Shown: positions 13,028 through 26,179, counted from the stretch's first letter. The stretch: DNA of 64,000 nt from Candidatus Bathyarchaeota archaeon (GCA_963726255.1 CAVSBL010000002.1:1824001-1888000), one strand, 5' to 3'. The notes: generated by a model not told the origin, from the sequence alone. A program made the numbers and translations.

Positions 13028-13813
13028 TTAACCTCTCCTCTCTCGTCTTAGAAGTTGGAATGAGACTGCATGGGTAAGTGCGCTGACGAGCATGGCTGAA
13101 ACGAACGCTAAGCCCACTCCCCAGTTAGTGATTGTTGCTGAGATGATCAGGAAGAAGATTATGAACGTGAAGGATCCAGCGACCACACCTCTCAGGAGTC
13201 TGATTGCATGCGCGCCCCCTTCAGACCGGTGAGTGAAGACCGCGAGAATCGTGGCGTACACCGGAAAAGGTGTAAGGAGTCCTGTTAACTATGGCCCAAG
13301 CCACTGGGCAACACCCGTAATCAGGAACACTAAAGCAGTGGCGGAAACCATACGCGCAGGGACCTCCCACCACCCCGTTCTCAGCGAGCTTCCCTCCAAG
13401 GTAACGTGAGGCATTAGCAAGAAGGTTATCAGAAGTACTCCGAAGACCGAAACGAAGCCGATTAACAAAGGCAGTTTTGTCGATTGGAGGAATAGTGTGC
13501 AGGCAAAGTAGGCGCATAAACCTGCCAGCAGGCTTAGCCGCCAGAAAAAGCGCGTAGCTGACCAGGTGTAAGCCAATGCGAAGGCGAATACTGAGATGAT
13601 CCCCATCATGATTGCTGCTGAGGCTGCGGAAGCGAAGGCATCTCCCTGTTCCAGGGCTAGGAAGAATGCAACCGGACCTGAAGTTAATGGCAACCCAATG
13701 AGCCAGCCACCAACGATTGGCCCCCATTTGCGGCTTGAGAGACTGACAAGGCCTATGAAAGTTGGGACAAGGAGTAGTTTGAGGAGAAGAATCATCCAGT
13801 CTGCGTAGATCAA
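13028..13813 (-). pseudogene. Multi-pass membrane protein interrupted by an in-frame TAG at 13289-13291
   Basis: ORFs 13289-13813 and 13028-13261 are in the same frame: QWLGP*LTGLLTPFPVYATIL; the internal repeat KWGPIVGGWLIGLP / WLGP*LTGLLTPFP supports one gene. Confidence 0.75.
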
Positions 13814-13853
13814 TTTTGACTACTCGAAGAGGAAGCGTTCGAAGTGACTACTA

Positions 13854-13880
13854 GTGTGTGCGCGCACCATCTGACAGCCC
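13854..13880 (+). repeat. Cassette-boundary site A (left arm plus core; right arm degenerate)
   Basis: GTGTGTGCGCGCA-CCATCT-GACAGCCC. Confidence 0.65.
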
Positions 13881-13911
13881 CGAAGGCGAAAGGGGACCAT
13901 GACACAATGAG

Positions 13912-14607
13912 TCATGTGTCCTTGCCTTCCAGTCGGAGGTTCTCTAAGGTAATGTACATTACTGAATCTACTTCGTGTTTTGAGTACGAACCTACTCGAA
14001 TGGTCTTCTTGAATTGTGGGCTGTCTAGAACCACCGTATGATATTCTCCATTTTCTCCGCATATATCAAGCCCGGTCCGTCTACTGATTTCAATTAGCTG
14101 CTCTACTGAACTCGGGGAGAGATCCAATCCGAGCCATTCTTCTGTGAACCAGGGTTTCTTAACGCAAGAGAAAACTATCTTGAATTTGAGCGAGAGCAGT
14201 TTATTCAGAAGTTCAACCCTGTCTCGATGCCACAAAGGCTTGATGAGGTCAATGCCACAACGCGCACAGCGGTCCACCATCCAATCCGGATCGTGACCAG
14301 TGACTTCTCCAATATCCCCGGTTACCAGCGTACTAATTCCGCGCTTTTCCTTGAGGGAGGAGATTGCATCTTCATAGCCCACATCGAATGGCTCCTCAAC
14401 TTCTAATACGTAATGTGGAAGACCCAAAGCCTGCGCCTGAAGCGCCATGAAGCCGAGAGGGTGAGCAAGAAACATTTCCTGACTCGGAGCGAAAGTGATT
14501 AAACAGTCAATCATACTGCCTAACATTCTTGCTTCATACAGGGCTAGAGAGGAATCCTTGCCCCCGGTCCACGACACCGCCACTCTGGACATGTTGCCAG
14601 AAATCAA
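13912..14607 (-). CDS. Diphthine--ammonia ligase-like (DUF71/PP-loop) ATP-binding protein
   Basis: SWTGGKDS PP-loop, GLDICGENGEYHT. Confidence 0.85.
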   Translation of the reverse strand: MISGNMSRVAVSWTGGKDSSLALYEARMLGSMIDCLITFAPSQEMFLAHPLGFMALQAQALGLPHYVLEVEEPFDVGYEDAISSLKEKRGISTLVTGDIGEVTGHDPDWMVDRCARCGIDLIKPLWHRDRVELLNKLLSLKFKIVFSCVKKPWFTEEWLGLDLSPSSVEQLIEISRRTGLDICGENGEYHTVVLDSPQFKKTIRVGSYSKHEVDSVMYITLENLRLEGKDT

Positions 14608-14663
14608 TCACTTCACAATTTTAGCCTAATGAAGTGTCCAGCTGCGCGCAATTATCCGTCTTT

Positions 14664-14693
14664 TGTGCGTACCCTTAGTGGTGAGCACACACA
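14664..14693 (-). repeat. Cassette-boundary site B
   Basis: minus strand TGTGTGTGCTCA-CCACTA-AGGGTACGCACA. Confidence 0.7.
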
Positions 14694-14749
14694 ATAAAAT
14701 CGGTGACGACGTGAAATAGGGGAAGTAGGCGAGGAAGCCTAAGGAACCG

Positions 14750-15154
14750 TCAGTGTTTCATCTGTTTTGCTAGGTACGCTTCAACTTCTGCGAACTGCTT
14801 CTTGAATTTGTCAAAGTCAATGCTTGCCGCATGTAAGATGGCGCTCCAACCAGCTGTGAATCTTGCGAGAAAAGCGGTCTCGGCTATTTCATCATCGGTA
14901 GCGCCGTTCATTCTGGCGGCTCTTGTGTGGAAATGAATGCAGTACGGACAATGAATTGCAGATGCAACAGCTAACCCCATAAGCTCACGGTACTTGGCGG
15001 GTATCTTGGTTTCCGCGAAGGTGAATTTCTTCATCTCTGCCCATTCGTGGGGAAGTGCATCATGTGGAATCGCTGTGAACTGATCGAGCACTAAGCCCAT
15101 GGTTTTCTTGATGTCGTCAAGAGTATTCTCATATTCTCCCATTCGATATGACAC
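14750..15154 (-). CDS. Carboxymuconolactone decarboxylase/AhpD family protein
   Basis: IPAKYRELMGLAVASAIHCPYCIHFH (CxxC...H) motif. Confidence 0.88.
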   Translation of the reverse strand: MSYRMGEYENTLDDIKKTMGLVLDQFTAIPHDALPHEWAEMKKFTFAETKIPAKYRELMGLAVASAIHCPYCIHFHTRAARMNGATDDEIAETAFLARFTAGWSAILHAASIDFDKFKKQFAEVEAYLAKQMKH

Positions 15155-15300
15155 CTCCTACTCCAATCTGCTTTCGAAGATTCGATTCACATCTCGCGAC
15201 TGTGCAGGAGACATGATGCGAAAGCACGTAACAGCAAGTGCTAGAAAGCAAACTCCACTAAAACGGCGCGCAACTATTTCAGAGTTTTCATTGCTCGTAG

Positions 15301-15329
15301 TCCCGTGGGTATGCTGGTGCGCACACACA
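15301..15329 (-). repeat. Cassette-boundary site C
   Basis: minus strand TGTGTGTGCGCA-CCAGCA-TACCCACGGGA. Confidence 0.8.
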
Positions 15330-15434
15330 GAATAGTCGGCAGCACACTATCTTTTCAACTTCACACCTGTACGTTGGGTGCTCCGAAACTATGGCGGTCA
15401 CATGGCCTATCGCTGACTTCTGTTTCTTTTCAAA

Positions 15435-15773
15435 TTAGGCAGGTGCTCCACAATGGGGGCATTGGTTTAACGTCTCTTCGAAGATTTGTCCGCAATTTCT
15501 GCATCGTATCTTCACAATTACCTCTCGTTGTATCGTTTCCTTCTCCTTGACCATTTCTGGAGCGTCTGCTTCAACTAGCTTCCAGCTCAGGGGCGTAAAG
15601 AGCGATCTTGCCTGAACTGCTAGAACATACCTCGTTGAACATTCCGAACAGACCACGTTAGGCATCGCAACTTCGAGCATGCGCCCGCCGTCTTTGGGGC
15701 ACCGAGACTTCTTGAGTGCCCTTTCGAAGTTTCTTCGCTGTCTTACCAATTGCCAGGACCGAGCACCGAACAT
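15435..15773 (-). CDS. Small zinc-ribbon protein
   Basis: CPKD..CSEC and CRNC..CPHC motifs; TTTATA box 24-29 nt upstream. Confidence 0.7.
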   Translation of the reverse strand: MFGARSWQLVRQRRNFERALKKSRCPKDGGRMLEVAMPNVVCSECSTRYVLAVQARSLFTPLSWKLVEADAPEMVKEKETIQREVIVKIRCRNCGQIFEETLNQCPHCGAPA

Positions 15774-15796
15774 ATATCGTGAATGTTTGGCGGCGC

Positions 15797-15802
15797 TATA
15801 AA
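15797..15802 (-). promoter_or_regulatory. Putative TATA box of the zinc-ribbon gene (leaderless spacing)
   Basis: TTTATA on minus strand 24-29 nt before the ATG at 15773. Confidence 0.5.
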
Positions 15803-15856
15803 TGCCCTAGCATATTTTCTCGGAAACTGGAAGACCCCCAGAACTTTCAGGCATCT

Positions 15857-15888
15857 TCGTGTGCGTACCACTAGAGGTACACACACGA
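15857..15888 (+). repeat. Cassette-boundary site D (near-perfect 13-6-13 hairpin)
   Basis: TCGTGTGCGTA-CCACTA-GAGGTACACACACGA. Confidence 0.75.
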
Positions 15889-15933
15889 GAAAACCTAAAG
15901 GGGGTAACGTACGGTCCCTGTTAGTGTTCAGAG

Positions 15934-16707
15934 TTGGCGGGCCAGGAACGAACCGACATTCCTCTTCTGCATGAATTGCTCCCCGACGACGTAAGGCTTG
16001 GGACCGTTTTCGCAGTTGAATTTGATCCTGTTTCGCACTGGTTTGCCGTAGCGGCAAGTATGGTTGTAAGTTGGGTGAAGAGCGGCCGACGTGCGGGGTG
16101 GGTTGCGATGGCCCGCCCTAGGGAAGACGTCAGAAATGACCTAGCGAGGTTGGGGGTAAATGTGCTTGAGAGCGAGAGAGCTGGAATGTTGCTCGTAGAC
16201 GACTGGCATTCTGCAACTTTAGGCTTGGAGCCCGTCTCTGGCCTTGCCAATGAAATCGTTGAAGGAGAAGGCGGACCTTACAACCGGATACTTTCGCTAA
16301 AGGTTTCGGATTGGAGTGTGCACTTCTTGAAAATGGTGAAGGAGGGTTTGAAGGATGTTGGAGATGACTGGCCTCTCGGTGCACTCGCCATCGCCGATTC
16401 TATTTCACCTGCCCTTAGATTCAACGATGAGAAACCGTACCTTGAGTGGTTAGAAAACAGGGTGAACCCTTGGCAACGACGGAGCATGGGAGTTACATTT
16501 CAAGGGGTAGTTAGCGGGCTTCATTCCGAGTTATTCTACAAGCGGATGGAGAACACTGCTGATGGAGTAATGGACGTGAAGGTAATGGAACGCGAAGACC
16601 AAACCAAGAATTATCTGAGAATCCGCGGTTTCAAAGGTCAAAGGTACGACAGCAGTTGGCATGAGATAGACATCAAATCAAACGGTGAAGCAATTCTGAG
16701 CAGCTGA
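15934..16707 (+). CDS. RAD55/KaiC-like RecA-fold protein with degenerate Walker A
   Basis: IPLLHELLP..G..FAVEFDP, IADSIS, MENTADGVMD, LRIRGFKGQ..W..IDI match the KaiC/RAD55 layout; no GxGKT. Confidence 0.7.
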   Translation: MAGQERTDIPLLHELLPDDVRLGTVFAVEFDPVSHWFAVAASMVVSWVKSGRRAGWVAMARPREDVRNDLARLGVNVLESERAGMLLVDDWHSATLGLEPVSGLANEIVEGEGGPYNRILSLKVSDWSVHFLKMVKEGLKDVGDDWPLGALAIADSISPALRFNDEKPYLEWLENRVNPWQRRSMGVTFQGVVSGLHSELFYKRMENTADGVMDVKVMEREDQTKNYLRIRGFKGQRYDSSWHEIDIKSNGEAILSS

Positions 16708-16718
16708 GCTTCCTTTTC

Positions 16719-16748
16719 GTGTGTGTGCGCACCATTGGACCCACACAC
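16719..16748 (+). repeat. Cassette-boundary site E (consensus-like)
   Basis: GTGTGTGTGCGCA-CCATTG-GACCCACACAC, 11 bp after the stop of the RAD55-like gene. Confidence 0.85.
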
Positions 16749-16762
16749 AAACCTATCAGGAC

Positions 16763-16796
16763 AGTCTGGTGGTGCGAGGAACTGAATTTGAATCGT
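16763..16796 (-). repeat. Site F: tRNA-3'-end-like/core chimera; 33/34 identical to 18464-18497
   Basis: minus strand ACGATTCAAATTCAGTTCCTCGCA-CCACCA-GACT. Confidence 0.8.
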
Positions 16797-16819
16797 GAGC
16801 ACTAGACACACAAGAAACA

Positions 16820-16864
16820 CCCCGGTTCAATTTCTGGGGCTCGCACCATCAGACCCACACACAC
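16820..16864 (+). repeat. Site G: tRNA T-arm/acceptor remnant fused to the right arm
   Basis: CCCCGGTTCAATTTCTGGGGCTCGCA-CCATCA-GACCCACACACAC. Confidence 0.8.
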
Positions 16865-16960
16865 AACCTTAGTTTCGGTCGCACGAAGGTTCTATTCGGT
16901 TCCTGGTAGATCAAAGGAATCAGAGAAATATGGGAAGCGAGCATCCTCAATCGAGTAGGT

Positions 16961-17383
16961 GTGAGAATGAAGGAAATTAGTACGAGCCAAGAGAAGAAAG
17001 AGAAGAAGATTGCACTCAGTTTCTTCAGTTTGATTGCCCCTCCTGAAGGACCGATGGCCGCTTTGCGCATTTTTGATCCAAAATGCAGGCATCACAATCC
17101 TTACAGTGCTCCCGGAATGAAAGCGCTATTCAGGGAGATGGCGAAGGTGCAGCAAGACATGGAGGCGAACGAAATGCCGCGTGATCCAGTCTTCCAAATC
17201 AAGCATGTGCTGGTAGATGGAAAGATGGTCGTCATCCATACTACTCTGCAATCCAAATCGAAAAGAACGAGAGGCTTCAGGCAAATCCACATGTTCCGTT
17301 TCAAGAGGGACAAGGTTGTCGAGTACTGGGATGTAACGCAGAGCGTGCCAAAGGAGGCCAAGTATCCGAAGAACATGTTCTAG
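16961..17383 (+). CDS. SnoaL/NTF2-like domain protein
   Basis: HHNPY..PG, LVDGKMVVIH, HMFRFKRDKVVEYWDVTQ. Confidence 0.85.
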   Translation: MRMKEISTSQEKKEKKIALSFFSLIAPPEGPMAALRIFDPKCRHHNPYSAPGMKALFREMAKVQQDMEANEMPRDPVFQIKHVLVDGKMVVIHTTLQSKSKRTRGFRQIHMFRFKRDKVVEYWDVTQSVPKEAKYPKNMF

Positions 17384-17481
17384 TAAAGTTTCAGAAACAT
17401 CTCCCAATGAATTAGGGAGACTATTTTTTGAAGCAAGGGCTGGCCGTAATCTGAGCCATCTCGTTTGTCGTCGTTCTCATT

Positions 17482-17519
17482 TTTCGTGTGTGTGGGTATA
17501 GTGGTGCGCACACACGAAA
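17482..17519 (-). repeat. Cassette-boundary site H
   Basis: minus strand TTTCGTGTGTGCGCA-CCACTA-TACCCACACACACGAAA; perfect 11-bp outer inverted repeat. Confidence 0.85.
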
Positions 17520-17537
17520 CCTGTTCGACTAGACATC

Positions 17538-17942
17538 CTAGAGTTCCGTGACGATCTCTTTAACAAATTCGAAGTGAGGAATGGTTTTCTCTTCTGCCAA
17601 CGCGATCAGCCCCTCTCGGATTTTCCTCGAACGCTTACTATACTTGGGGAGCAAGGTTGTGAGATAGACTAAGCCAACTGCTAGAATTGATCCTGCAATC
17701 AACAGGATCAAATATGAACGGGTTTCGAGGCTGTTACTCAAAACTCCCTGAATTATTATGCCAAGGGCCACTCCTAACAGTACAGCGAGAACCCCCAAGA
17801 GCCTATTCAACGTCTCAGAGCGAGACTGAACACAAATCTGCAGAACATCAAGCTGCCATCGTCGCTCTTCCAAGTCAGAGTCCAAGTTTCTACCCGAACG
17901 TATTTTGCCTTTTGGGCGTATTTGGTTTCTGTTAAGTCTCAC
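17538..17942 (-). CDS. Hypothetical membrane protein (2 TM)
   Basis: Two hydrophobic helices; start overlaps the stop of the upstream ORF. Confidence 0.6.
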   Translation of the reverse strand: MRLNRNQIRPKGKIRSGRNLDSDLEERRWQLDVLQICVQSRSETLNRLLGVLAVLLGVALGIIIQGVLSNSLETRSYLILLIAGSILAVGLVYLTTLLPKYSKRSRKIREGLIALAEEKTIPHFEFVKEIVTEL

Positions 17943-18282
17943 AGTGGTGTGGTGGTGGGTCAGCTGGTGCTCCCATCAGATCTAATTCTTCCTGTAACGG
18001 TTTTCGCCAAGTTGCTGCCACAAGTGCCACTATGAGTATGAGGAAGAGTACGCCAGCCACAGAAACCAGGTTCTGCTTGATCGGATTTGTTTCCGTCCAG
18101 CTTGTGCTCACGTAGGGCACACAATATTCCGGGCATTCAGGGTCTTGTTCAGTTATGAGAACGGCGACGGGCTGAGACGGTGCAATTACCACCGCTAACG
18201 CTATTATTCCCTCGGCCAGCAGGAGGATTGTGATTACCTTCCACTTTCTCGCAGTCATTTGCCTCTGGGAGCGCCGTTCCAT
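17932..18282 (-). CDS. Hypothetical membrane protein (2 TM, CPEYC loop)
   Basis: Two hydrophobic segments flanking a short Cys-containing loop. Confidence 0.6.
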   Translation of the reverse strand: MERRSQRQMTARKWKVITILLLAEGIIALAVVIAPSQPVAVLITEQDPECPEYCVPYVSTSWTETNPIKQNLVSVAGVLFLILIVALVAATWRKPLQEELDLMGAPADPPPHHCET

Positions 18283-18453
18283 GTTATACGCTGTTGGTTA
18301 TTTCCGTACTTTAACTGAGTGGGTATTCGATTTCGCCCGCTGCTCTAAGGCCGTAATCAATAGCGCATAGTTGGGTCACAGCGCAGGTCTCTCGCCCAGT
18401 CCGGTGCGGAGCTGATCTCTTTCTTCTTCGTCGTCGTTCCTCGTTACTAAGAA

Positions 18454-18497
18454 TGTGCGTGTGAGTCTGGTGGTGCGAGGGACTGAATTTGAATCGT
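18454..18497 (-). repeat. Site I: tRNA-3'-end-like remnant fused to the right arm; right boundary of the array
   Basis: minus strand ACGATTCAAATTCAGTCCCTCGCA-CCACCA-GACTCACACGCACA. Confidence 0.8.
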
Positions 18498-18582
18498 ATC
18501 ATTGGCTTGGGTTCGCGTGGGCTTGCGAATGAAGGTTTAATTGCTTGTGCAGGCGTCCACCGCATACGGGAAGGCTATTACT

Positions 18583-18762
18583 TTGTCTAGTGCGCGTGAA
18601 AAGCGGCGTAAACGTGAAGCGCCTATGCCTGCGGCAAGTGCAGGTTTGCTCCGGTTCTTCGAGGAGGATACGCCGGGGATTAAGGTTCCGCCGGAAGTTG
18701 TGGTAATGTTCTCCATAGGCCTCGTCGCGGTAAGCCTCTTCATGTACTTGACATTCAAGTAG
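18583..18762 (+). CDS. secG: Preprotein translocase subunit Sec61beta
   Basis: SAGLLRFFEEDTPGIKVPPEVV plus one C-terminal TM; likely TTG start at 18583. Confidence 0.9.
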   Translation: MSSAREKRRKREAPMPAASAGLLRFFEEDTPGIKVPPEVVVMFSIGLVAVSLFMYLTFK

Positions 18763-19777: not shown

Positions 19778-20047
19778 GGACAGCTTCGCTCTTGACTCAA
19801 CGCTTCAACGCTACGCCAACTTCTGGGCGATACGGCTTCTTCCCCGAATGTGTCTATTAGCGCTTTGTCCGCTCTCTTCAAATCTTAGCCGATGATTCGC
19901 GCGTTCCTTCGTGGAGCCGTCTCATCACATGACAATGGATGTGACCTAAAGCTTGGACAGGTGGGTGAAGACGCATCTTGAGAATGCACTCTATGCATCG
20001 GTCGGCTATGCGATGATTTGAATGCACCAACGCCGGGCGTTCTTTTC

Positions 20048-21604
20048 TCATTTCGTTAGCGTTCTCTTCCTCAGGTAGGCTCGCCAGGTCATGGCTAACT
20101 TCGCAGGGTCTTCTAGGTTGGCGTCGGGTATTCTAGCGATCGAGGAATTGTGAGGGGCGGTCTTCACTAGTTCTGGATTTGAGTACGCTTCCTTGGAGAT
20201 TTCGGCTAATACTGCAACCCAATAGTCAATGTCCGCCTTCGAATATGTCTCGCAGGGTTCCGGAGTGAAGGGTTCAGGCACGACCCAGGGATGGTGGCTA
20301 AGCCAATAGGATTGGACGCCATAGTCTACGACCCTACGTATGACGTCTTGGGCTCCAACTCCCGTTTCTTCGCGTAGCTTCTCTAGGCTGTACCTGATTT
20401 GGTCGAGGCGCCTATTCGTTTTGTATGGTTTGGTTACGCCTGTAACTGTGAGTAGTTTCTTCTCAAGGTAGTTGTTATTTATCATGGAGATTTCTGCCAC
20501 TTCCCTTAATCCGTCTGCCCCCATGCTCATTGCCCAAGCGTAAGCCCTCAACACGATCTGGACATTGCCATAGAAGTCGCGGACTTTGCCGATGCTGTGG
20601 GGCCTATCATAATCAAGGTGGTACCTATCTCCATCGAAGGTTACCACAGGAACTGGAAGGAATTTTGCTAATTCCTGTTTGACACCAACGGCTCCGCATG
20701 CGGGCCCGTAAGACCCGTGCGGCGATGAGAATGTTTTGTGAAGGTTGAAGAAGCACATGTCGAACCCGGACTCTTTAGCCCTTGAGACGCCCAACAGAGC
20801 GTTTGCGTTTGCTTGGTCGTACGCGCACAGACCGCCTGCCTCGTGCACCATCTTGGTCCACTCGTCAATCTCGGGGTTGAAGATCCCTGTGTCCTCAGGG
20901 TTTGTGGTCATCAGCCCAGCTGTATGCTTGGAAACTGCAGCCTTCAGCGACTCCGTATTCGGAAACCCGGTTTCCCCATCGGGGTAGAGTGTTATGACCT
21001 TGAACCCCGCGGTTGCTGCGGTCGCGGCGCTGCTGGGGTGAGAGAAGATAGTCGTGATTATTTCGTCCCGCTGTCCAAGTTCACCATTCAACTCGTGGAA
21101 TTTTCTAATTATGCATGCGTTGGTATAGGCAGCTTCGTTGCCGCCTCCAGCATGGAAGACAAACTCGTCCAACCCGGAGATTTCTCTCAGGAAGACATAC
21201 CCAAACTCGTAAACGATCTTCAAAACGCCCTGAATCGTTTCTTCATCCTGAAGCGGATGGATTTCGGCAAGTTCTTTCACTAGATCTTCGTTGACCTTGG
21301 GGCTGTATTTCATCGTGCACGTTCCTTCTCCTAAGTCGATGTTGAAATCCATTCCAAGCGTCTGCTGGGAAAGGCGCAGGTAGTGTCTCAGAACGTGGGG
21401 CTGGGAGAGTTCAGGTAGGCTAGGCGGCTGTTTCCTTCGCATGGTGGTTGGAACAAACGCCATGGCATCGCCGACCGCGGCCCTAACCTCTTCTTCAACT
21501 TCTGGGATGCGGATCCCTCTTTCCCCTTTGCGTCCCATCGACATTATGACGGGTTCGCTCCATACTGGTGCGTGGTATCTTCTCGGGGATTCCTGAGCTT
21601 TCAT
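20048..21604 (-). CDS. gcvPB: Glycine dehydrogenase (decarboxylating) subunit 2
   Basis: GTCTMKYSPK, PLP motif NLHKTFSSPHG. Confidence 0.9.
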   Translation of the reverse strand: MKAQESPRRYHAPVWSEPVIMSMGRKGERGIRIPEVEEEVRAAVGDAMAFVPTTMRRKQPPSLPELSQPHVLRHYLRLSQQTLGMDFNIDLGEGTCTMKYSPKVNEDLVKELAEIHPLQDEETIQGVLKIVYEFGYVFLREISGLDEFVFHAGGGNEAAYTNACIIRKFHELNGELGQRDEIITTIFSHPSSAATAATAGFKVITLYPDGETGFPNTESLKAAVSKHTAGLMTTNPEDTGIFNPEIDEWTKMVHEAGGLCAYDQANANALLGVSRAKESGFDMCFFNLHKTFSSPHGSYGPACGAVGVKQELAKFLPVPVVTFDGDRYHLDYDRPHSIGKVRDFYGNVQIVLRAYAWAMSMGADGLREVAEISMINNNYLEKKLLTVTGVTKPYKTNRRLDQIRYSLEKLREETGVGAQDVIRRVVDYGVQSYWLSHHPWVVPEPFTPEPCETYSKADIDYWVAVLAEISKEAYSNPELVKTAPHNSSIARIPDANLEDPAKLAMTWRAYLRKRTLTK

Positions 21605-23010
21605 TTTGATACCTCCTTCAACGCGTCGACAAGTCTCAGTATGTCGTCTTTTGTATGGGTCTCAGTGACGCAGTACAAGCTGCTGTTTCCGAGTTCTGGA
21701 AATTCCCGGAAGATGTCTTTTCCTCCGAAGATTCCTCGTTTCAACAATTGTCTGTTTACTTCAGAAACGCGCGTTTTGCTGTCGAATGTTACCACGAATT
21801 CCTTGAAGAAGGTTTGAAATGGGATCTTGACGCCCTTTACTTCAGCCAACTTTCGGGCCGCGTAATGCGATTTCCGCAATATCGTCTCTCCGAGTTCCTT
21901 CATACCCGCGGGACCCATGAGCGCCAGGTAGACTGCGCTAACTATCGTCCACAGCCCAGCGGCCGTTCCAACCCAGTCTTTCGCTTTATCTCTACCAATG
22001 TACGAGGTTCTCTCGGCCATGCAATAGGCGAATGCGCATTCGCCTCGTACGGTTTCAGTAATGGTGACTAGGTGTGAGGGATGTTCGCCAACGAACTTCT
22101 TTTCGTCGGGGCAGGCTAGAAAACCTGCAAGGCTACCGCCACAAAACATGTGGTTGCCGAGGGGTTGAATCTCACCGCAGACAATATCCGCGCCATAATC
22201 CGAGGGAGGCGAAAGCACACCCAAGGAAATGGGGTCTACGCCAACTATACATTCGGCACCGCTTTCATGGGCAGTCTTCGAGATTTCCTGGCCGTTGGCT
22301 TCGATAACCCCGAGGTATGACGGGTTCTCGAAGTAAACGCCCGCTGTCTTAGACGAAATTTCTCTCCTGAGGTGGTTGAGGTCGAGCATGCCGGTCTTGG
22401 GATCGTTGCTGATTGTTTTGACGTCGATGTGGTTTGGCATTGCTGCCGGGCCGCAAAAGTTGCGTATTATTGCGAATCGGTCTGGGCTTATGGTGCGTGA
22501 GACGAGAACCTCTCTTCTGCCCGTTATCCTTGACGCCATTCTAATCGCGTTTCCGGCTGAGGCGCCCCAATCGTATGTGGGAAGGCCGACTACATCCATT
22601 CCCACCAGTTCCCCAATCATACTCTGAAACTCGAAGAATGCTTGATGCTTGCCTAAGTCTGAGTATTCGTCGCCGCCATAGGCGGTCAGAAATTCCGCTC
22701 TTCGAGCAATCTCATCGCAGACGGCTGGCACATAATGCTTCCAGCAACCTGCCCCAAGAAAACTCAGGTTCTTGTTGCAATCGATGTTTCTCGATAAGAT
22801 TTGTTCCACATGCCGTCTTAGGTCGGCTTCTGCGGCGAGGGGCTTCGGGAGGTTCATTCGGTGTTTGAGCCTTAGCCTGTCGGGAATTATTTGAGCGTAG
22901 AGTGCCTCACTGTTCTCCACCCCGATTTCTTTGAGCATCTCCTGCTTTACTTCAGAAACGGAGTTGGGCATGTACGGATGGGCGCTGTGTTCGGTCAGTC
23001 TGAACACCAA
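21601..23010 (-). CDS. gcvPA: Glycine dehydrogenase (decarboxylating) subunit 1
   Basis: HPYMPNS, SFLGAGCWKHYVP, FEFQSMI, LYCVTETHT. Confidence 0.9.
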   Translation of the reverse strand: MVFRLTEHSAHPYMPNSVSEVKQEMLKEIGVENSEALYAQIIPDRLRLKHRMNLPKPLAAEADLRRHVEQILSRNIDCNKNLSFLGAGCWKHYVPAVCDEIARRAEFLTAYGGDEYSDLGKHQAFFEFQSMIGELVGMDVVGLPTYDWGASAGNAIRMASRITGRREVLVSRTISPDRFAIIRNFCGPAAMPNHIDVKTISNDPKTGMLDLNHLRREISSKTAGVYFENPSYLGVIEANGQEISKTAHESGAECIVGVDPISLGVLSPPSDYGADIVCGEIQPLGNHMFCGGSLAGFLACPDEKKFVGEHPSHLVTITETVRGECAFAYCMAERTSYIGRDKAKDWVGTAAGLWTIVSAVYLALMGPAGMKELGETILRKSHYAARKLAEVKGVKIPFQTFFKEFVVTFDSKTRVSEVNRQLLKRGIFGGKDIFREFPELGNSSLYCVTETHTKDDILRLVDALKEVSK

Positions 23011-23033
23011 GTGTTGAAGGCGGTGGATTCCTC

Positions 23034-24182
23034 TTAACTGTCGCGCACATATGGTTCTGACGGGTTTGATATCCTATATATTACGCTGCGGCCGTAGCCA
23101 GTTAGAATTCTGGTGTAGCCGCTCAGTTCGGCGTCGAGCTCGGGATCACCTGTATCGACCAGTAGAGGTGCGCCTTTCAGGGAGGCAAGCTTGTTTGGTG
23201 TGGCGACGATGATTATGTTCTCCTTGCCGACGCGCCTGATGATTTGAGGGCTGATTTGCTGGTTGCCCCGACCGAAAATGAACCCCTGCCCACCAATGAC
23301 CGTGACAATTATCTTCGCTTTTCTTCTCTCTTCCAACAGTTCCAAGAGTTTGGCTTCATTCGCGTCCGAAGCAGCCAGCTTTCGGTTTAGGACTGCGTCG
23401 ACGCCGAGGAGAGTTTTCTTCAACCCAAGCTTGTCCATGATGGGTTTCGTCGTTGTCCCCGGCCCGAGGACGTAGAGGCAATCTTGTTGCATGTTCTCTA
23501 CAATGTCGGTTGCGATATCAATTAGCGAAGAATCCTCCGTGGTGGGGCTGCTCCCCTTTGCACTCTGAACGAGCGCCCTATCAAAGGGGACCTTCATGTA
23601 TCCGTAAAGCTTCGCTGAAACCCGGTTCTCCCTGAAGGCTGCTTCGTCTATGTCCATGACCTCCATATCCCGGAGTTGCATTGGTTGGCGCAACAGAAAG
23701 TTAGCGGCCAAATCGCCTGCGCTTCTCGGGTTCACCGCGAACACAGCGGAATGAATCTTGACTCCCGCAGGGATCCCTATCACAGGAACCTTGAGGTGAA
23801 CTACATCGCAAAGGTCCCTTGCAGTTCCATCGCCGCCGGCGAAGAGGATTAGGTCAACCTTTAGGCCCAGCATTTCGCGAGCTGCGCTCTTTGTATCGTC
23901 TGAACTTGTTTTCCCTTTGGCTATCGAACCTATCACACGTGGGTTGAATCCGGTGACCCTCGCTTCGTCTTCTCCCATCTCGGCGGGATACGTAACCAAT
24001 TCCAAAGAATCCCTGATCCTGAGGATTCTCTGAAGCGCTTCAATCGATCTAGTCGGAGATGTTGGGGTCGCTCCAAGCTCTATTGCCTTCTGAAGGACAG
24101 TTAGGCCGTCGCTTCCTTTCAGCCCCACTTTGCCCCCCATTCCCGCGATCGGGTTCACGATAAAACCTAGAAGCTTTTTCAT
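23034..24182 (-). CDS. ATP-NAD kinase family protein
   Basis: IVNPIAGMGG, GGDGTARD, IPAGVKIHS, GGQGFIFGRGNQQ. Confidence 0.85.
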   Translation of the reverse strand: MKKLLGFIVNPIAGMGGKVGLKGSDGLTVLQKAIELGATPTSPTRSIEALQRILRIRDSLELVTYPAEMGEDEARVTGFNPRVIGSIAKGKTSSDDTKSAAREMLGLKVDLILFAGGDGTARDLCDVVHLKVPVIGIPAGVKIHSAVFAVNPRSAGDLAANFLLRQPMQLRDMEVMDIDEAAFRENRVSAKLYGYMKVPFDRALVQSAKGSSPTTEDSSLIDIATDIVENMQQDCLYVLGPGTTTKPIMDKLGLKKTLLGVDAVLNRKLAASDANEAKLLELLEERRKAKIIVTVIGGQGFIFGRGNQQISPQIIRRVGKENIIIVATPNKLASLKGAPLLVDTGDPELDAELSGYTRILTGYGRSVIYRISNPSEPYVRDS

Positions 24183-24538
24183 TGGCTGAACCTCGGAGCG
24201 TTGTCGCGGCTGCATTAGTATCCGCTCGCAGCGCCTACCTCTAATGAACGTAGTCTGCGTTTATCAGGCGTGACTCTCGCAAATTGATATGATAGTGCAG
24301 TTTTGCGAAGTGCTGTCACTTCGTTGCATGAACAGTAGACCGTAAACTGGCGTTGGAAAATCACGATTTGAGGTAAAAAGCCTTGAATACCATAAGACAT
24401 CTTGAATCGAAATCACCTAATCCTAATGAGTACGAGCATCCAAATTTGAAACGTCGTGAAGAGGCATTTTTCATGTGTGACTCCCCGGGGACTCATGGTC
24501 AAAACGGACCTAGTTCGGAAAAATCCTCGCGCGGGCAG

Positions 24539-25162
24539 ATGAGATTGCTGCCGAGGGAACACGGCGCAACCGCGATCTGGTTCTCCTCGGTGTTGCTCGC
24601 CTTTGGAATGCTCCGGGAGCCGCCATGGACCCCTGGTGCCGTTGTTTTCCTAGCAGCCTGCGTACTCGCGCTGGTCCTCATAGGACGGCTCACCAGCGGC
24701 TCTATAGTCGTCGTCCGCTTGGAGCGGAATCGAACTCTGCTCCCGGTTCTTTCTGGTCTCCTGACCTTGATCGTCCCGTTAGGGCAGATAATCATGGTCG
24801 GACAGCTCTCCCTTCCAGTCCTTGCCGCCTGGCTCATCTTCCTGACTTATTGTTCATCAGGAGTGGTGTACACGCGAGACTTGGTTCGTTCGGTGCTGAA
24901 GGAGGTGTCACCCACGTGGACCAGCTTCAATCTCTCCGTAGTCTTCATTGTTTCCGAGGTTGTCACACTAAACGCTGTCAACTGGCTTTCCATCGCCACC
25001 GTAGCCATCATTGTGCCGTTGACCGTTTACCGCGTCGTCGTTCTGTCGCTAATTCAACGAAAAAGTTCCTCTAAGATAGAACGTATTCGCGGAGTGGGCT
25101 TCGCGCAGACCGGGAACCTGATAGCCGCGACCATTATCCTCGCCTTGGTTTCGAAACTCTGA
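24539..25162 (+). CDS. YwiC-like membrane protein
   Basis: N-terminal LPREHGA motif and several TM helices; likely ATG at 24539. Confidence 0.65.
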   Translation: MRLLPREHGATAIWFSSVLLAFGMLREPPWTPGAVVFLAACVLALVLIGRLTSGSIVVVRLERNRTLLPVLSGLLTLIVPLGQIIMVGQLSLPVLAAWLIFLTYCSSGVVYTRDLVRSVLKEVSPTWTSFNLSVVFIVSEVVTLNAVNWLSIATVAIIVPLTVYRVVVLSLIQRKSSSKIERIRGVGFAQTGNLIAATIILALVSKL

Positions 25163-25264
25163 AACAGCCCCTACGCCGACTCCCCTACGAAGCTCGCAAG
25201 AATAGGCTCAGCATGAGTGTGCTTGAGGTGAGCGTGTCCGGACCGTCGTCGGTTCGTTCTAAAA

Positions 25265-25291
25265 GTGTGTGTGCGCACCATTAGACCCACA
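25265..25291 (+). repeat. Isolated copy J of the cassette-boundary site
   Basis: GTGTGTGTGCGCA-CCATTA-GACCCACA. Confidence 0.85.
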
Positions 25292-25374
25292 GTGAAAGTC
25301 ATAAACTATTTACGGAAAATAGGTGTAGAAAAATGGGGGTAACTGGGAGTGTATGTCCCAAGTTACTTTCGGCT

Positions 25375-25545
25375 TTATGCCTTAACGTTAGGCTGGTACG
25401 CGAATAGTGTTTCGCTTCTCCAGATGCCATCGGTATGGCCTAGTTGTTCGACCGTAGATTTCATGAGTCGCTCATAGTTCTGAGCCTGGAAGTCTCTGGT
25501 TGATTGGTCTTCTCTCGGCCAAGGGACTCCTTGCACTTCTTAGCC
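25375..25545 (-). pseudogene. Decayed Lrp/AsnC ligand-binding-domain fragment
   Basis: Minus strand reads ...FQAQNYERLMKSTVEQLGHTDGIWRSETLFAYQPNVKA*; the upstream part is degenerate. Confidence 0.4.
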
Positions 25546-25600
25546 AATCGATCTTAGGGACAACTGATGATGGGTCGTTGCGGGGACTAATCTCTGCCGT

Positions 25601-26179
25601 TTAGGGGTGACCGTACTTTACGGTTAGAAGTTCCCGTTTGGTGAGGCGTCGTTTCTTCACTTTCCCGGGCTTGGGTGAGACGATTGCGCTGTTGCCGAAG
25701 GGGTCCTTGAGTGTAAGCGTGAAGTGGGGCTTCTCCTTAGCCAGGCGAAATTGCTTGAGCATCTTCTCGCCCTTTGCGAGGCGTTTCCTTGTTGCCGTTG
25801 AGAGCATCATGGTCAACGCGTCTTGAATTCGGTCCAGGATGCCTTCAACGTTTGAAATGTAACCTTCACTATACGGGCCAGGCGTTATGGTCGCCCCGAA
25901 CTCTGGAATACTCACCGTCGCCGTCCCTGATTTTATGACGTGCATGTTCAAGTCTTCAACCGAACTAATTTTAGCGGTTAGGGCAATGGGTTCACGTTCC
26001 GTCAGCGTCATTACGTCCGTATGTCTGTAGCCGCATTTCTCGCAAGTGACTACGCTCATGAGGACGGAGCCAAAATGTTCTACCTCATATTCCGTCTGGG
26101 TGGTGAGCATGGATTCAGTGTCGCAGCTAGGGCACCGCAGGGTGGCGGTGCGTACGTCGATGGGAGCAGTCAAGGCCAA
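25601..26179 (-). CDS. ZPR1 zinc-finger domain protein
   Basis: CPSC..CEKCGYR, ITPGPYSEGYISNVEGIL, DPFGNSAI. Confidence 0.92.
   Translation of the reverse strand: MALTAPIDVRTATLRCPSCDTESMLTTQTEYEVEHFGSVLMSVVTCEKCGYRHTDVMTLTEREPIALTAKISSVEDLNMHVIKSGTATVSIPEFGATITPGPYSEGYISNVEGILDRIQDALTMMLSTATRKRLAKGEKMLKQFRLAKEKPHFTLTLKDPFGNSAIVSPKPGKVKKRRLTKRELLTVKYGHP

Follow-up and report, generated by a model that had tools for sequence, protein, structure and literature searches.

An integron-like array of gene cassettes with casposon-type ends in a Bathyarchaeia genome

In the portions of the published accounts used here, casposons of Methanosarcina mazei have 14-bp target-site duplications (TSDs) that begin with 5′-CGCA, vary in the middle and overlap the 3′ end of tRNA-Leu; upstream tRNA sequence belongs to the target and is needed, and tandem elements may share a TSD (PMC6977970, PMC4779613). 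For Aciduliprofundum boonei, the corresponding portions describe a 15-bp TSD at a real tRNA-Pro gene, a target made up of this TSD plus 18 bp of the T-loop region, integration of artificial mini-casposons with terminal inverted repeats (TIRs) alone, and a prediction that tandem arrays form by stacking upstream of earlier copies (PMC5137440). Integrons, including archaeal ones (Ghaly et al. 2022), are described as arrays of small cassettes, most of them holding a single gene, whose cargo is very diverse; many such arrays are without the enzyme (CALINs; PMC9668308).

We analysed a 64,000-nt stretch from a Candidatus Bathyarchaeota archaeon (GCA_963726255.1 CAVSBL010000002.1:1824001-1888000), hereafter the window; its genome (G000) is 98.5% complete. 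An earlier note had listed nine related sites in the window and interpreted them as the borders of small, mobile gene cassettes that are unrelated to each other and form an array. All nine were found where it had placed them, its gene calls (Diphthami_syn_2, CMD, zinc ribbon, weak KaiC, SnoaL, two membrane ORFs, Sec61beta) were correct, and the cassette array was borne out: the repeated site is the joint between small mobile gene cassettes in an integron-like array. The ends of the cassettes and their 14-base target copies correspond to what a Cas1-type integrase (casposase) leaves behind, and the block is very probably a series of non-autonomous gene cassettes that derive from casposons and are piled up in tandem. 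It would represent an archaeal integron-like gene array built by the transposon family considered the origin of CRISPR.

Joints and cassettes of the window

Each joint consists of a right TIR tip (..GTGTGTG), a 14-bp target copy (CGCACCAnnnKACC) and the left TIR tip of the next element (CACACAC..). In some joints the left tip is replaced by a "leader" resembling a tRNA 3′ end (GGTTCAAAT, 13 nt, CCA), and at array ends such a pseudo-tRNA 3′ end, with T-loop-like GGTTCAAAT, stands 5′ of the target. The leader preserves tRNA spacing exactly (TTCAAAT, 13 nt, CCA); T-stem pairing is not preserved in our own reading of the alignments. By analogy with casposons, it probably plays the part of the casposase leader and may be required for targeting. 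Cassettes begin with CACACACACGAAAA... and end with ...TTTTCGTGTGTGTG, and hold one or two cargo genes between short TIRs (~9-15 nt of (CA)n). The target core starts with CGCA, which is in part imposed by the detector. The 6 bp that the earlier note took for the centre of an 11-6-11 site form the middle of a 14-bp TSD, and the 14-bp duplications of Cas1 elements replace that scheme with TIR tip, 14 bp and TIR tip. The joints and cassettes are as follows.

13854-13876, +: joint 1; right TIR tip GTGTGTGCG (13854-13862) and 14-bp target copy CGCACCATCTGACA (13863-13876) with no CACACAC tip after it (sequence read; 'A' anchor)
13877-14671, -: cassette 1; gene 13912-14607 (-), PP-loop/diphthamide-synthase-like (Pfam PF01902, E 1.3e-34)
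14672-14685, -: joint 2; degenerate 14-bp core, reverse complement CTCACCACTAAGGG, flanked by GTGCGTA (14665-14671) and CACACACAA (14686-14694)
14686-15307, -: cassette 2; gene 14750-15154 (-), CMD/AhpD family (Pfam PF02627)
15308-15321, -: joint 3; core CGCACCAGCATACC (strict detector)
15322-15863, -: cassette 3; gene 15435-15773 (-), zinc-ribbon protein (weak zinc-ribbon Pfam matches)
15864-15877, +: joint 4; degenerate core CGTACCACTAGAGG
15878-16727, +: cassette 4; gene 15934-16707 (+), KaiC/RAD55-like, without Walker A motif
16728-16741, +: joint 5; perfect core CGCACCATTGGACC between GTGTGTGTG (16719-16727) and CACACACAA
16763-16795, -: joint 6; core CGCACCACCAGACT (16763-16776) and tRNA-3′-end-like leader (16777-16795), reverse complement CGATTCAAATTCAGTTCCT
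16822-16855, +: joint 7; leader CCGGTTCAATTTCTGGGGCT (16822-16841) and core CGCACCATCAGACC (16842-16855), followed by TIR tip CACACACACAACC
16856-17494, +: cassette 5; gene 16961-17383 (+), SnoaL-like (Pfam PF12680)
17495-17508, -: joint 8; perfect core CGCACCACTATACC between TIR tips
17509-18463, -: cassette 6; two small membrane ORFs, 17538-17942 and 17932-18282 (-)
18464-18496, -: joint 9; core CGCACCACCAGACT (18464-18477) and leader (18478-18496), the leader end of the array, ~45 nt from Sec61beta (18541-18762)
25274-25287, +: joint 10; core CGCACCATTAGACC, right edge of a 5.8-kb block (19806-25607)

Joints 6 and 9 form a near-identical 33-nt direct repeat. The TIRs are clear in cassette 4, with TACACACACGAGAAAAC at the left end and CCTTTTCGTGTGTGTG at the right end (CACACACGAGAAAAC / reverse complement CACACACACGAAAAGG). 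A 195-nt cassette remnant (25292-25487) follows joint 10. When the window was scanned with the full 28-nt pattern (up to 3 mismatches), matches were obtained at 16721+, 17488- and 25267+ and none in shuffled control sequences; the other six sites are degenerate copies. A strict core-based detector found six window joints (15308-, 16728+, 16842+, 17495-, 18464- and 25274+), and those at 13863, 14672, 15864 and 16763 were detected by looser rules only. The window gave no Rfam match at gathering threshold and no tRNA match.

Distribution and mobility of the cassettes

G000 has about 57-70 joints. We kept 69 anchors after dropping two 'B'-only matches, two doubtful ones and one true tRNA; coding sequence makes up 87% of the genome, and 62 of these anchors lie between genes. 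The joints are clustered, with 34 of 62 gaps shorter than 5 kb; 2000 randomisations gave 8.5 such gaps on average and never more than 17. A core with no more than one mismatch was present in 17 of the 18 genomes of the same genus, at 1-37 copies each, and in 1 of the 12 from other genera; a reversed control pattern gave 0-1. The earlier note's rule that the upstream site shares the orientation of the gene failed genome-wide (same 34, opposite 28), and site-to-gene distances in G000 varied widely. In the loci scanned, a single core had an ARAGORN tRNA at a distance of 120 nt or less; the leaders are mostly pseudo-tRNA ends. The cargo often includes genes for TBP paralogues.

G015, G004 and G014 share cassettes with the array at 436-456 kb of G000, at 92-98% DNA identity and next to different neighbours; core genes are 80-82% identical. 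The CMD cassette was found in three contexts; it is present twice in G004 (86-87% identity), each copy between sites. A homologue of cassette 3 (89% identity) adjoins a site in G004:C16. The two genes around the 5.8-kb block whose right edge is at joint 10 also occur in G015, G014 and G004, with no such block between them.

Contigs from populations of three other studies diverged from the window at joints; these data are contigs, and the short sides of many joints fall inside the repeat. Record 3 of X2 aligns to 13674-14693 (cassette 1) and then continues for 3.5 kb mostly unlike the window. Homology to cassette 3 stops at 15861/15863 in X6 record 26 and X4 record 20, and loose ends and joints of X6 lie near joint 3 (15305 and 15328/9). 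Homology in other populations ends at joints 4 and 5, which flank cassette 4; around this cassette, X2 joins 15861 to 16808 and X6 joins 15328/9 to 16839/42, with short sides of 24-57 nt inside the repeat, and X2 record 4 stops at 16748. At cassette 5, X4 joins 16734 to 17461 and 16866 to 17486 (short sides). Across genomes, only 34 of 117 homology end points had a site-like match nearby; thus, the boundaries are often blurred.

Cas1 elements with the same ends

Each of three Cas1 elements, L208 (G015, 11.0 kb), L215 (G002, 5.2 kb) and L206 (G014, 8.6 kb), lies between identical direct repeats of 14 bp (CGCACCAGCATACC or CGCACCACTATACC) immediately outside its inverted termini, with a tRNA-like leader 5′ of the first copy. 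Cas1 element TIRs are CACACACAC.../...GTGTGTGTG, CACCCCCCCAG/CTGGGGGGGTG and CGCCCCCGCCGCC/GGCGGCGGGGGCG, and sister-species elements with these ends encode a Cas1 of 400-414 aa. The L206 protein matched the M. mazei casposase (PDB 6OPM) with E 6.9e-71 over residues 9-404 of 410; its second-best match was a CRISPR Cas1 (3e-25). Among 120 metagenome contigs fetched by the site, Cas1 was the most recurrent protein family (12 ORFs on 11 contigs, PF01867 E 1e-52). It was present, in multiple copies, in 11 of 18 same-genus genomes; a strict core lay within 3.2 kb of 21 of 30 Cas1 ORFs and not of the other 9. No Cas1 was found in G011, G013, G017, G007 or G028, yet each has many sites.

Duplication was also evident from adjacent cores. 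A common central 4-mer was found in 25 of 106 same-orientation pairs (expected 0.056, i.e. 5.6%; binomial p 7e-10) and in 10 of 88 opposite-orientation pairs (Fisher p 0.02). The centres differed in 81 of the 106, and no window cassette has flanking cores that match each other; the TSD thus surrounds the three Cas1 elements and not individual window cassettes.

The family-B DNA polymerase (PolB) is a defining gene of casposons, which are self-synthesising. None was found in the 20 Cas1 neighbourhoods scanned, which cover part of the elements. PF03175 gave one match in five genomes, 11 kb from a Cas1; PF00136 matched single-copy genes of ~786 and 870 aa, and no such gene lay within a Cas1 element bounded by sites. 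No HNH gene was found in the elements examined.

The elements resemble M. mazei family-2 casposons in their full-length Cas1 homologue, in their tandem arrangement and in a 14-bp TSD that starts with 5′-CGCA, varies in the middle and abuts or overlaps a tRNA-type 3′ end. With the A. boonei casposon they have in common a target in which the duplicated segment adjoins ~18 bp over the tRNA T-loop. They differ from those casposons, as described in the portions used here, in that PolB and HNH were not found in the elements examined, the TIRs are ~9-15 nt instead of 31 nt, 7 nt (CGCACCA) instead of 4 are shared with the tRNA-like end, and the leaders are mostly pseudo-tRNA ends, not tRNA genes. Arrays here extend to 16 sites on one contig, and Cas1 is lacking from 192 of the 199 intervals between sites (~96% of units), whereas the M. 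mazei arrays in those portions consist of two full elements. Natural Cas1-less cargo cassettes are not among the A. boonei descriptions in the portions of PMC5137440 used here. The long arrays, the high proportion of units without Cas1, the lack of PolB in the elements examined and the host, a Bathyarchaeia genus, look new.

Origin of the array

Joint anatomy, linkage to Cas1 in relatives, duplications, spread across species and differences between strains are observed and underlie the casposon reading; movement of the Cas1-less cassettes by a casposase is inferred from them. By analogy with the M. mazei and A. boonei casposases, a Cas1-family integrase would recognise leader and target, and would link each 3′-OH end of an element bounded by TIRs to one of the two target strands, at positions 14 bp from each other. 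Repair of the gaps would copy the 14 bp; because the target would thereby be regenerated, more elements could stack. However, the two core orientations (88 opposite vs 106 same) are not predicted by simple leader-proximal stacking.

G000, window included, had no Cas1 (PF01867) match, and no tyrosine, serine or Y1 recombinase was found in it, in keeping with the earlier note's proposal of an enzyme encoded elsewhere. The block in the window therefore consists of stacked cassettes with one or two genes and no Cas1, at best non-autonomous derivatives; they would either need a casposase supplied in trans by related elements or now be shuffled by joint-to-joint recombination only. A rival explanation is that the sites are REP/MITE-like repeats or old casposon scars, and that cassettes are now shuffled and exchanged solely by homologous recombination between the 30-50-nt joints, with no part for a casposase. 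The missing recombinases fit this explanation, as do the two core orientations, the unlike centres of most adjacent cores, the blurred end points and the finding that, at orf149 and CBS boundaries, the inner core can be inverted while the cassette beside it is conserved. We nevertheless regard it as improbable, because Cas1 elements with intact TIRs and perfect duplications have the same ends, and a core conserved across the genus with a free centre is a pattern of protein recognition. REP/RAYT systems combine a Y1 HUH transposase with palindromes that are dispersed in their hundreds next to core genes. This assignment was rejected: G000 lacks PF01797, and the sites are ~57-70 copies clustered in variable regions, not the hundreds beside core genes that the earlier note had considered as a counter-indication.

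Integrons have an IntI tyrosine recombinase beside attI and attC sites bounding the cassettes; pdif/Xer modules have 28-bp XerC/XerD-type sites and a Xer recombinase. The earlier note, which correctly held the site to be neither attC nor dif, proposed a tyrosine recombinase encoded elsewhere that exchanges strands in the 6-bp centre. This proposal is largely refuted, and we give it very little chance. PF00589 and PF16795 are absent from G000, and PF00589 from site-rich G007 and G028; although 15 of 18 same-genus genomes have PF00589 genes, G009 has three integrases and no strict site, and 1 of 27 matches lay within 5 kb of a site (six genomes with complete site lists, compared by eye). One Xer-like integrase in G011 does lie within an array, 4 kb from a site; however, the integrase clade that we followed is at genuine tRNA genes and has another element end (TTTACTAGTA...) without the motif. 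The site resembles 11-6-11 with inverted outer arms, but identical 14-bp duplications outside the TIRs are a transposase signature. A pdif/Xer module was rejected on the same duplications and on the lack of a Xer-type gene in G000. The array is also unlike integrons in its Cas1 transposase-type joining, genes in both orientations without a common promoter, duplications flanking elements and lack of an attC hairpin site (no Rfam match in the window at gathering threshold).

A promoter, operator or RNA-processing signal on each gene, with the T-loop-like box as a TATA-like element, is the least credible explanation. It would leave the duplications, TIRs and Cas1 linkage unexplained, and the absence of an orientation rule, the variable gene distances, the lost T-stem pairing and the lack of Rfam or tRNA matches argue against it, although the sites are intergenic, 11 of 17 leader-type sites face a downstream gene (counted by eye) and the cargo often includes TBP paralogues.

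The array has a further parallel in CRISPR arrays, whose Cas1-Cas2 integrase is homologous and whose target, in the portions of the source used here, is a leader plus a duplicated unit that can yield a polar array (PMC5137440). Here, in contrast, the duplicated unit is 14 bp, and the inserts are TIR-bounded gene cassettes of 0.3-11 kb instead of spacers.

Joints and their distribution

The earlier note had listed nine related sites in window block 13854-18497, and all nine were located at their positions; the gene content of the window also agreed with its description. A 28-nt pattern, allowing up to three mismatches, gave no match in shuffled controls and the following matches in the window:
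16721, forward strand, pattern match
17488, reverse strand, pattern match
25267, forward strand, pattern match
The remaining listed sites were degenerate copies of this pattern.

G000 (the genome that contains the window) carried from ~57 (strict) to 74 (loose) copies of the site. Five anchors were left out before the context count (two 'B'-only matches, two doubtful matches and one true tRNA). Intergenic anchors then made up 62 of 69, in a genome with a coding fraction of 87%. The joints (each a right TIR tip, a 14-bp core, CGCACCAnnnKACC, and a left TIR tip or tRNA-like leader) were strongly clustered: 34 of 62 gaps were shorter than 5 kb, and 2000 randomisations gave 8.5 such gaps on average and never more than 17. 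Most intervals between joints held one gene. The core was present in 17 of 18 genomes of the same genus vs 1 of 12 from other genera of the same order.

The left flank of the site had two forms. One was GTGTGTG; the other, which we call the leader, had exactly the layout of the 3′ end of a tRNA (GGTTCAAAT, 13 nt, CCA). Leader-type sites kept the tRNA spacing but not the T-stem pairing, and most leaders were located away from tRNA genes. We rejected the sites as tRNA genes or Rfam RNAs, because the window gave no tRNA or Rfam match, and likewise rejected a promoter or terminator role, because there was no orientation rule. A 3′ CCA was encoded by 16 of the 17 real tRNA genes of G000. tRNA genes on the window's contig (G000:C2) were intron-rich; only 17 reached the Rfam threshold, and ARAGORN in intron mode reported 35, some of them doubtful. 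One real tRNA on this contig (2185881-2186006) ends in ...GGCCGCA-CCA followed by CAGACAC, and resembles an unoccupied native target (CGCACCAnnn.AC).

Cas1-bearing elements and site structure

A metagenome scan with the site yielded 120 contigs, 95 of them with at least two sites, and Cas1 was their most recurrent protein family. In the genus, 11 of 18 genomes carried Cas1 in multiple copies, and 21 of 30 Cas1 ORFs had a strict core no more than 3.2 kb away. The Cas1 matched the M. mazei casposase structure 6OPM over its full length (E 6.9e-71), followed by CRISPR Cas1 at 3e-25 or weaker. PolB was not found in the elements examined. Several site-rich genomes were without Cas1, including G000, which is 98.5% complete. 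Intervals between joints (median 1.2 kb) were Cas1-free in 192 of 199 cases.

One form of TIR end was CACACACACGAAAA... Three Cas1-bearing elements were arranged as leader / CGCACCAGCATACC / TIR ... Cas1 ... TIR / CGCACCAGCATACC / CACACAC, the last belonging to the next element. Their 14-bp direct repeats were identical and positioned outside the inverted termini. Therefore, the site consists of a right TIR tip, a 14-bp target-site duplication and a left TIR tip, a parse that replaces the 11-6-11 inverted-arm structure proposed before. Among 412 sites, the central 4-mer was common to 25 of 106 adjacent same-orientation cores vs 5.6% expected (p 7e-10), and to 10 of 88 adjacent pairs of opposite orientation. 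Most adjacent cores were unlike each other and many were inverted; no window cassette had matching flanking cores. A near-identical 33-nt direct repeat of leader plus core, with copies 1.7 kb apart in the window (16763-16795 and 18464-18496), is not accounted for by a 14-bp duplication alone.

Other ORFs recurred beside Cas1. A 1561-aa NACHT/AAA-type ORF lay by a truncated Cas1 and ended at a joint at two loci (L136 1221-5906; L144 4591-9276). An ORF of ~335 aa overlapped the Cas1 start in several elements (L174 6439-7458, L209 8638-9642, L210 6681-7691), with a MazE/AbrB-like domain at its C terminus in L174. Upstream of Cas1, in 4-6 loci, three families of small unannotated ORFs recurred in divergent orientation.

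The site had previously been ascribed to a tyrosine recombinase acting in trans. Searches of G000 for PF00589, PF16795, Y1, serine recombinase and reverse transcriptase found none of them, and its two TnpB-like genes were far from any site. Among related genomes, G007 and G028 had sites and no integrase, G009 had integrases and no strict site, and 1 of 27 integrase matches lay within 5 kb of a site (six genomes, lists compared by eye). Because PF00589 is absent from G000 and integrases and sites do not go together in relatives, we discarded this driver. A XerA-type gene was likewise undetected in G000, since PF00589 is wholly absent from this nearly complete genome.

A fixed site module of 'B' site, 175-aa ORF and Xer-like integrase was also considered and rejected; the pattern had matched genuine tRNA 3′ ends, and the element is an ordinary tRNA-integrating one. 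The conserved pair (175-aa ORF and 317-325-aa Xer-like integrase) directly follows genuine tRNA genes in five relatives:
L069 12586-14090, ORF and integrase pair
L073 7252-8735, ORF and integrase pair
L074, ORF and integrase pair
L076, ORF and integrase pair
L077, ORF and integrase pair
The element end of this pair was TTTACTAGTA, and in L076 a leader-like pseudo-tRNA end followed the integrase. One site-bearing metagenome contig (L146 5485-8165) carried IS110-family (DEDD) and IS240-type DDE transposases together.

Movement of cassettes between genomes

The earlier view of the units as mobile gene cassettes held. The CMD cassette of the window occurred twice in the related genome G004, both copies between sites and at 86-87% identity. 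Cassettes of the G000 array at 436-456 kb (MFS, DUF116, cupin and CBS) were found singly, and next to different genes, in other species (G015, G004 and G014); their DNA identity was 92-98%, and core-gene identity was 80-82%. Contigs from metagenomic populations of three studies (X2, X4 and X6) tracked the window and then parted from it at joints:
14693, divergence of X2 record 3
15861, divergence of X6 record 26
15863, divergence of X4 record 20
16748, end of match of X2 record 4
Joints with sides shorter than 30 nt and uncovered parts of the window were counted as uninformative; many listed population joints had short sides inside the repeat and were not relied on. Base-level mapping of 117 homology end points defined no single crossover point; 34 lay close to a site-like match, with offsets that varied.

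Of the window's Sec61beta neighbourhood, eight relatives retained Sec61beta, the 340-aa gene and the gene at 25601 and nothing else. Their 20-kb Sec61beta loci contained no sites and offered no clean filled-vs-empty comparison. A four-gene block of the window (19806-25607; 518, 469, 393 and 259 aa) separates the 340-aa metallo-hydrolase gene from gene 25601-26179; in G015, G014 and G004 these two genes are neighbours (gap of 28 nt in G015). Joint 10 forms the right edge of the block, and no joint was recognised at its left edge. The ~195 nt next to joint 10 (25292-25487) have copies in G014, G017, G011 and G004, with identities of 88-96%. This stretch is the 3′ terminus of a cassette gene of 174 aa, and L030 (8752-9276) and L032 (1168-1692) have complete copies of that gene.

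Origin of the array and its cargo

Casposons are known as large transposons that are rare and self-replicating, and the CRISPR adaptation enzyme probably derives from them. The window block is a casposon-type cassette array with an integron-like outcome. Cas1 is absent from several site-rich genomes, most adjacent cores are mismatched, many are inverted and end points are often blurred. The array thus probably owes its origin and its architecture to casposase transposition; later rearrangement by joint-to-joint recombination, or inactivity in G000, is possible. We incline slightly to the view that casposases of this Bathyarchaeia genus mobilise in trans a large stock of PolB-less, Cas1-less, TIR-bounded cassettes, which stack at pseudo-tRNA leader/target sites into integron-like arrays exchanged between species.

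Excerpts of published work describe 14-bp duplications of M. mazei casposons that start with 5′-CGCA, overlap the tRNA-Leu 3′ end and require upstream tRNA sequence (PMC6977970; PMC4779613). The A. boonei casposase target comprises the duplicated segment and 18 bp of the tRNA-Pro T-loop region; the enzyme integrates TIR-only mini-casposons, and its authors predicted tandem stacking (excerpts of PMC5137440). Casposon excision leaves a single target copy behind (excerpt of PMC10359463). As far as these excerpts go, published casposons closely resemble the array described here in core (CGCA...), leader and stacking. In the part of the literature covered, neither Cas1-less arrays of casposon cassettes nor casposons of Bathyarchaeia were described; defective or solo-TIR elements may be among those in the supplementary tables of PMC4779613.

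Here, casposon integration chemistry seems to have become a platform for gene capture, in which tiny cargo cassettes, dozens to a genome, pile up next to tRNA-like leaders at targets that are regenerated, and are common to several species. If casposase moves the cassettes, a Cas1 enzyme runs an archaeal equivalent of the integron, and the tandem stacking predicted on the basis of in-vitro work occurs naturally and at large scale. The natural array of leader, short duplicated unit and inserted DNA would then be a living analogue of the proposed casposon-to-CRISPR-array step, giving that scenario a testable intermediate. This reading also accounts for a repeat that is spread across the genus and for the flexible genome islands of this archaeal group, which is widespread in soil and sediment.

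The cargo was highly diverse, and the 720 ORFs of the 120 metagenome contigs yielded few families. The motif was not found flanking CMD homologues outside the genus. A site scan of viral contigs gave one match, in a contig of 72% G+C, which we judged to be chance. KaiC-like and TBP paralogues were enriched at sites and were judged to be cargo; the KaiC-like proteins have no Walker A motif. At least seven such KaiC-like paralogues were recurrent cassette cargo in G000, G004, G014 and G015. G000:C2 carried eight TBP paralogues (121096-121665, 438918-439514, 1773698-1774375 and others), six of which adjoin joints.
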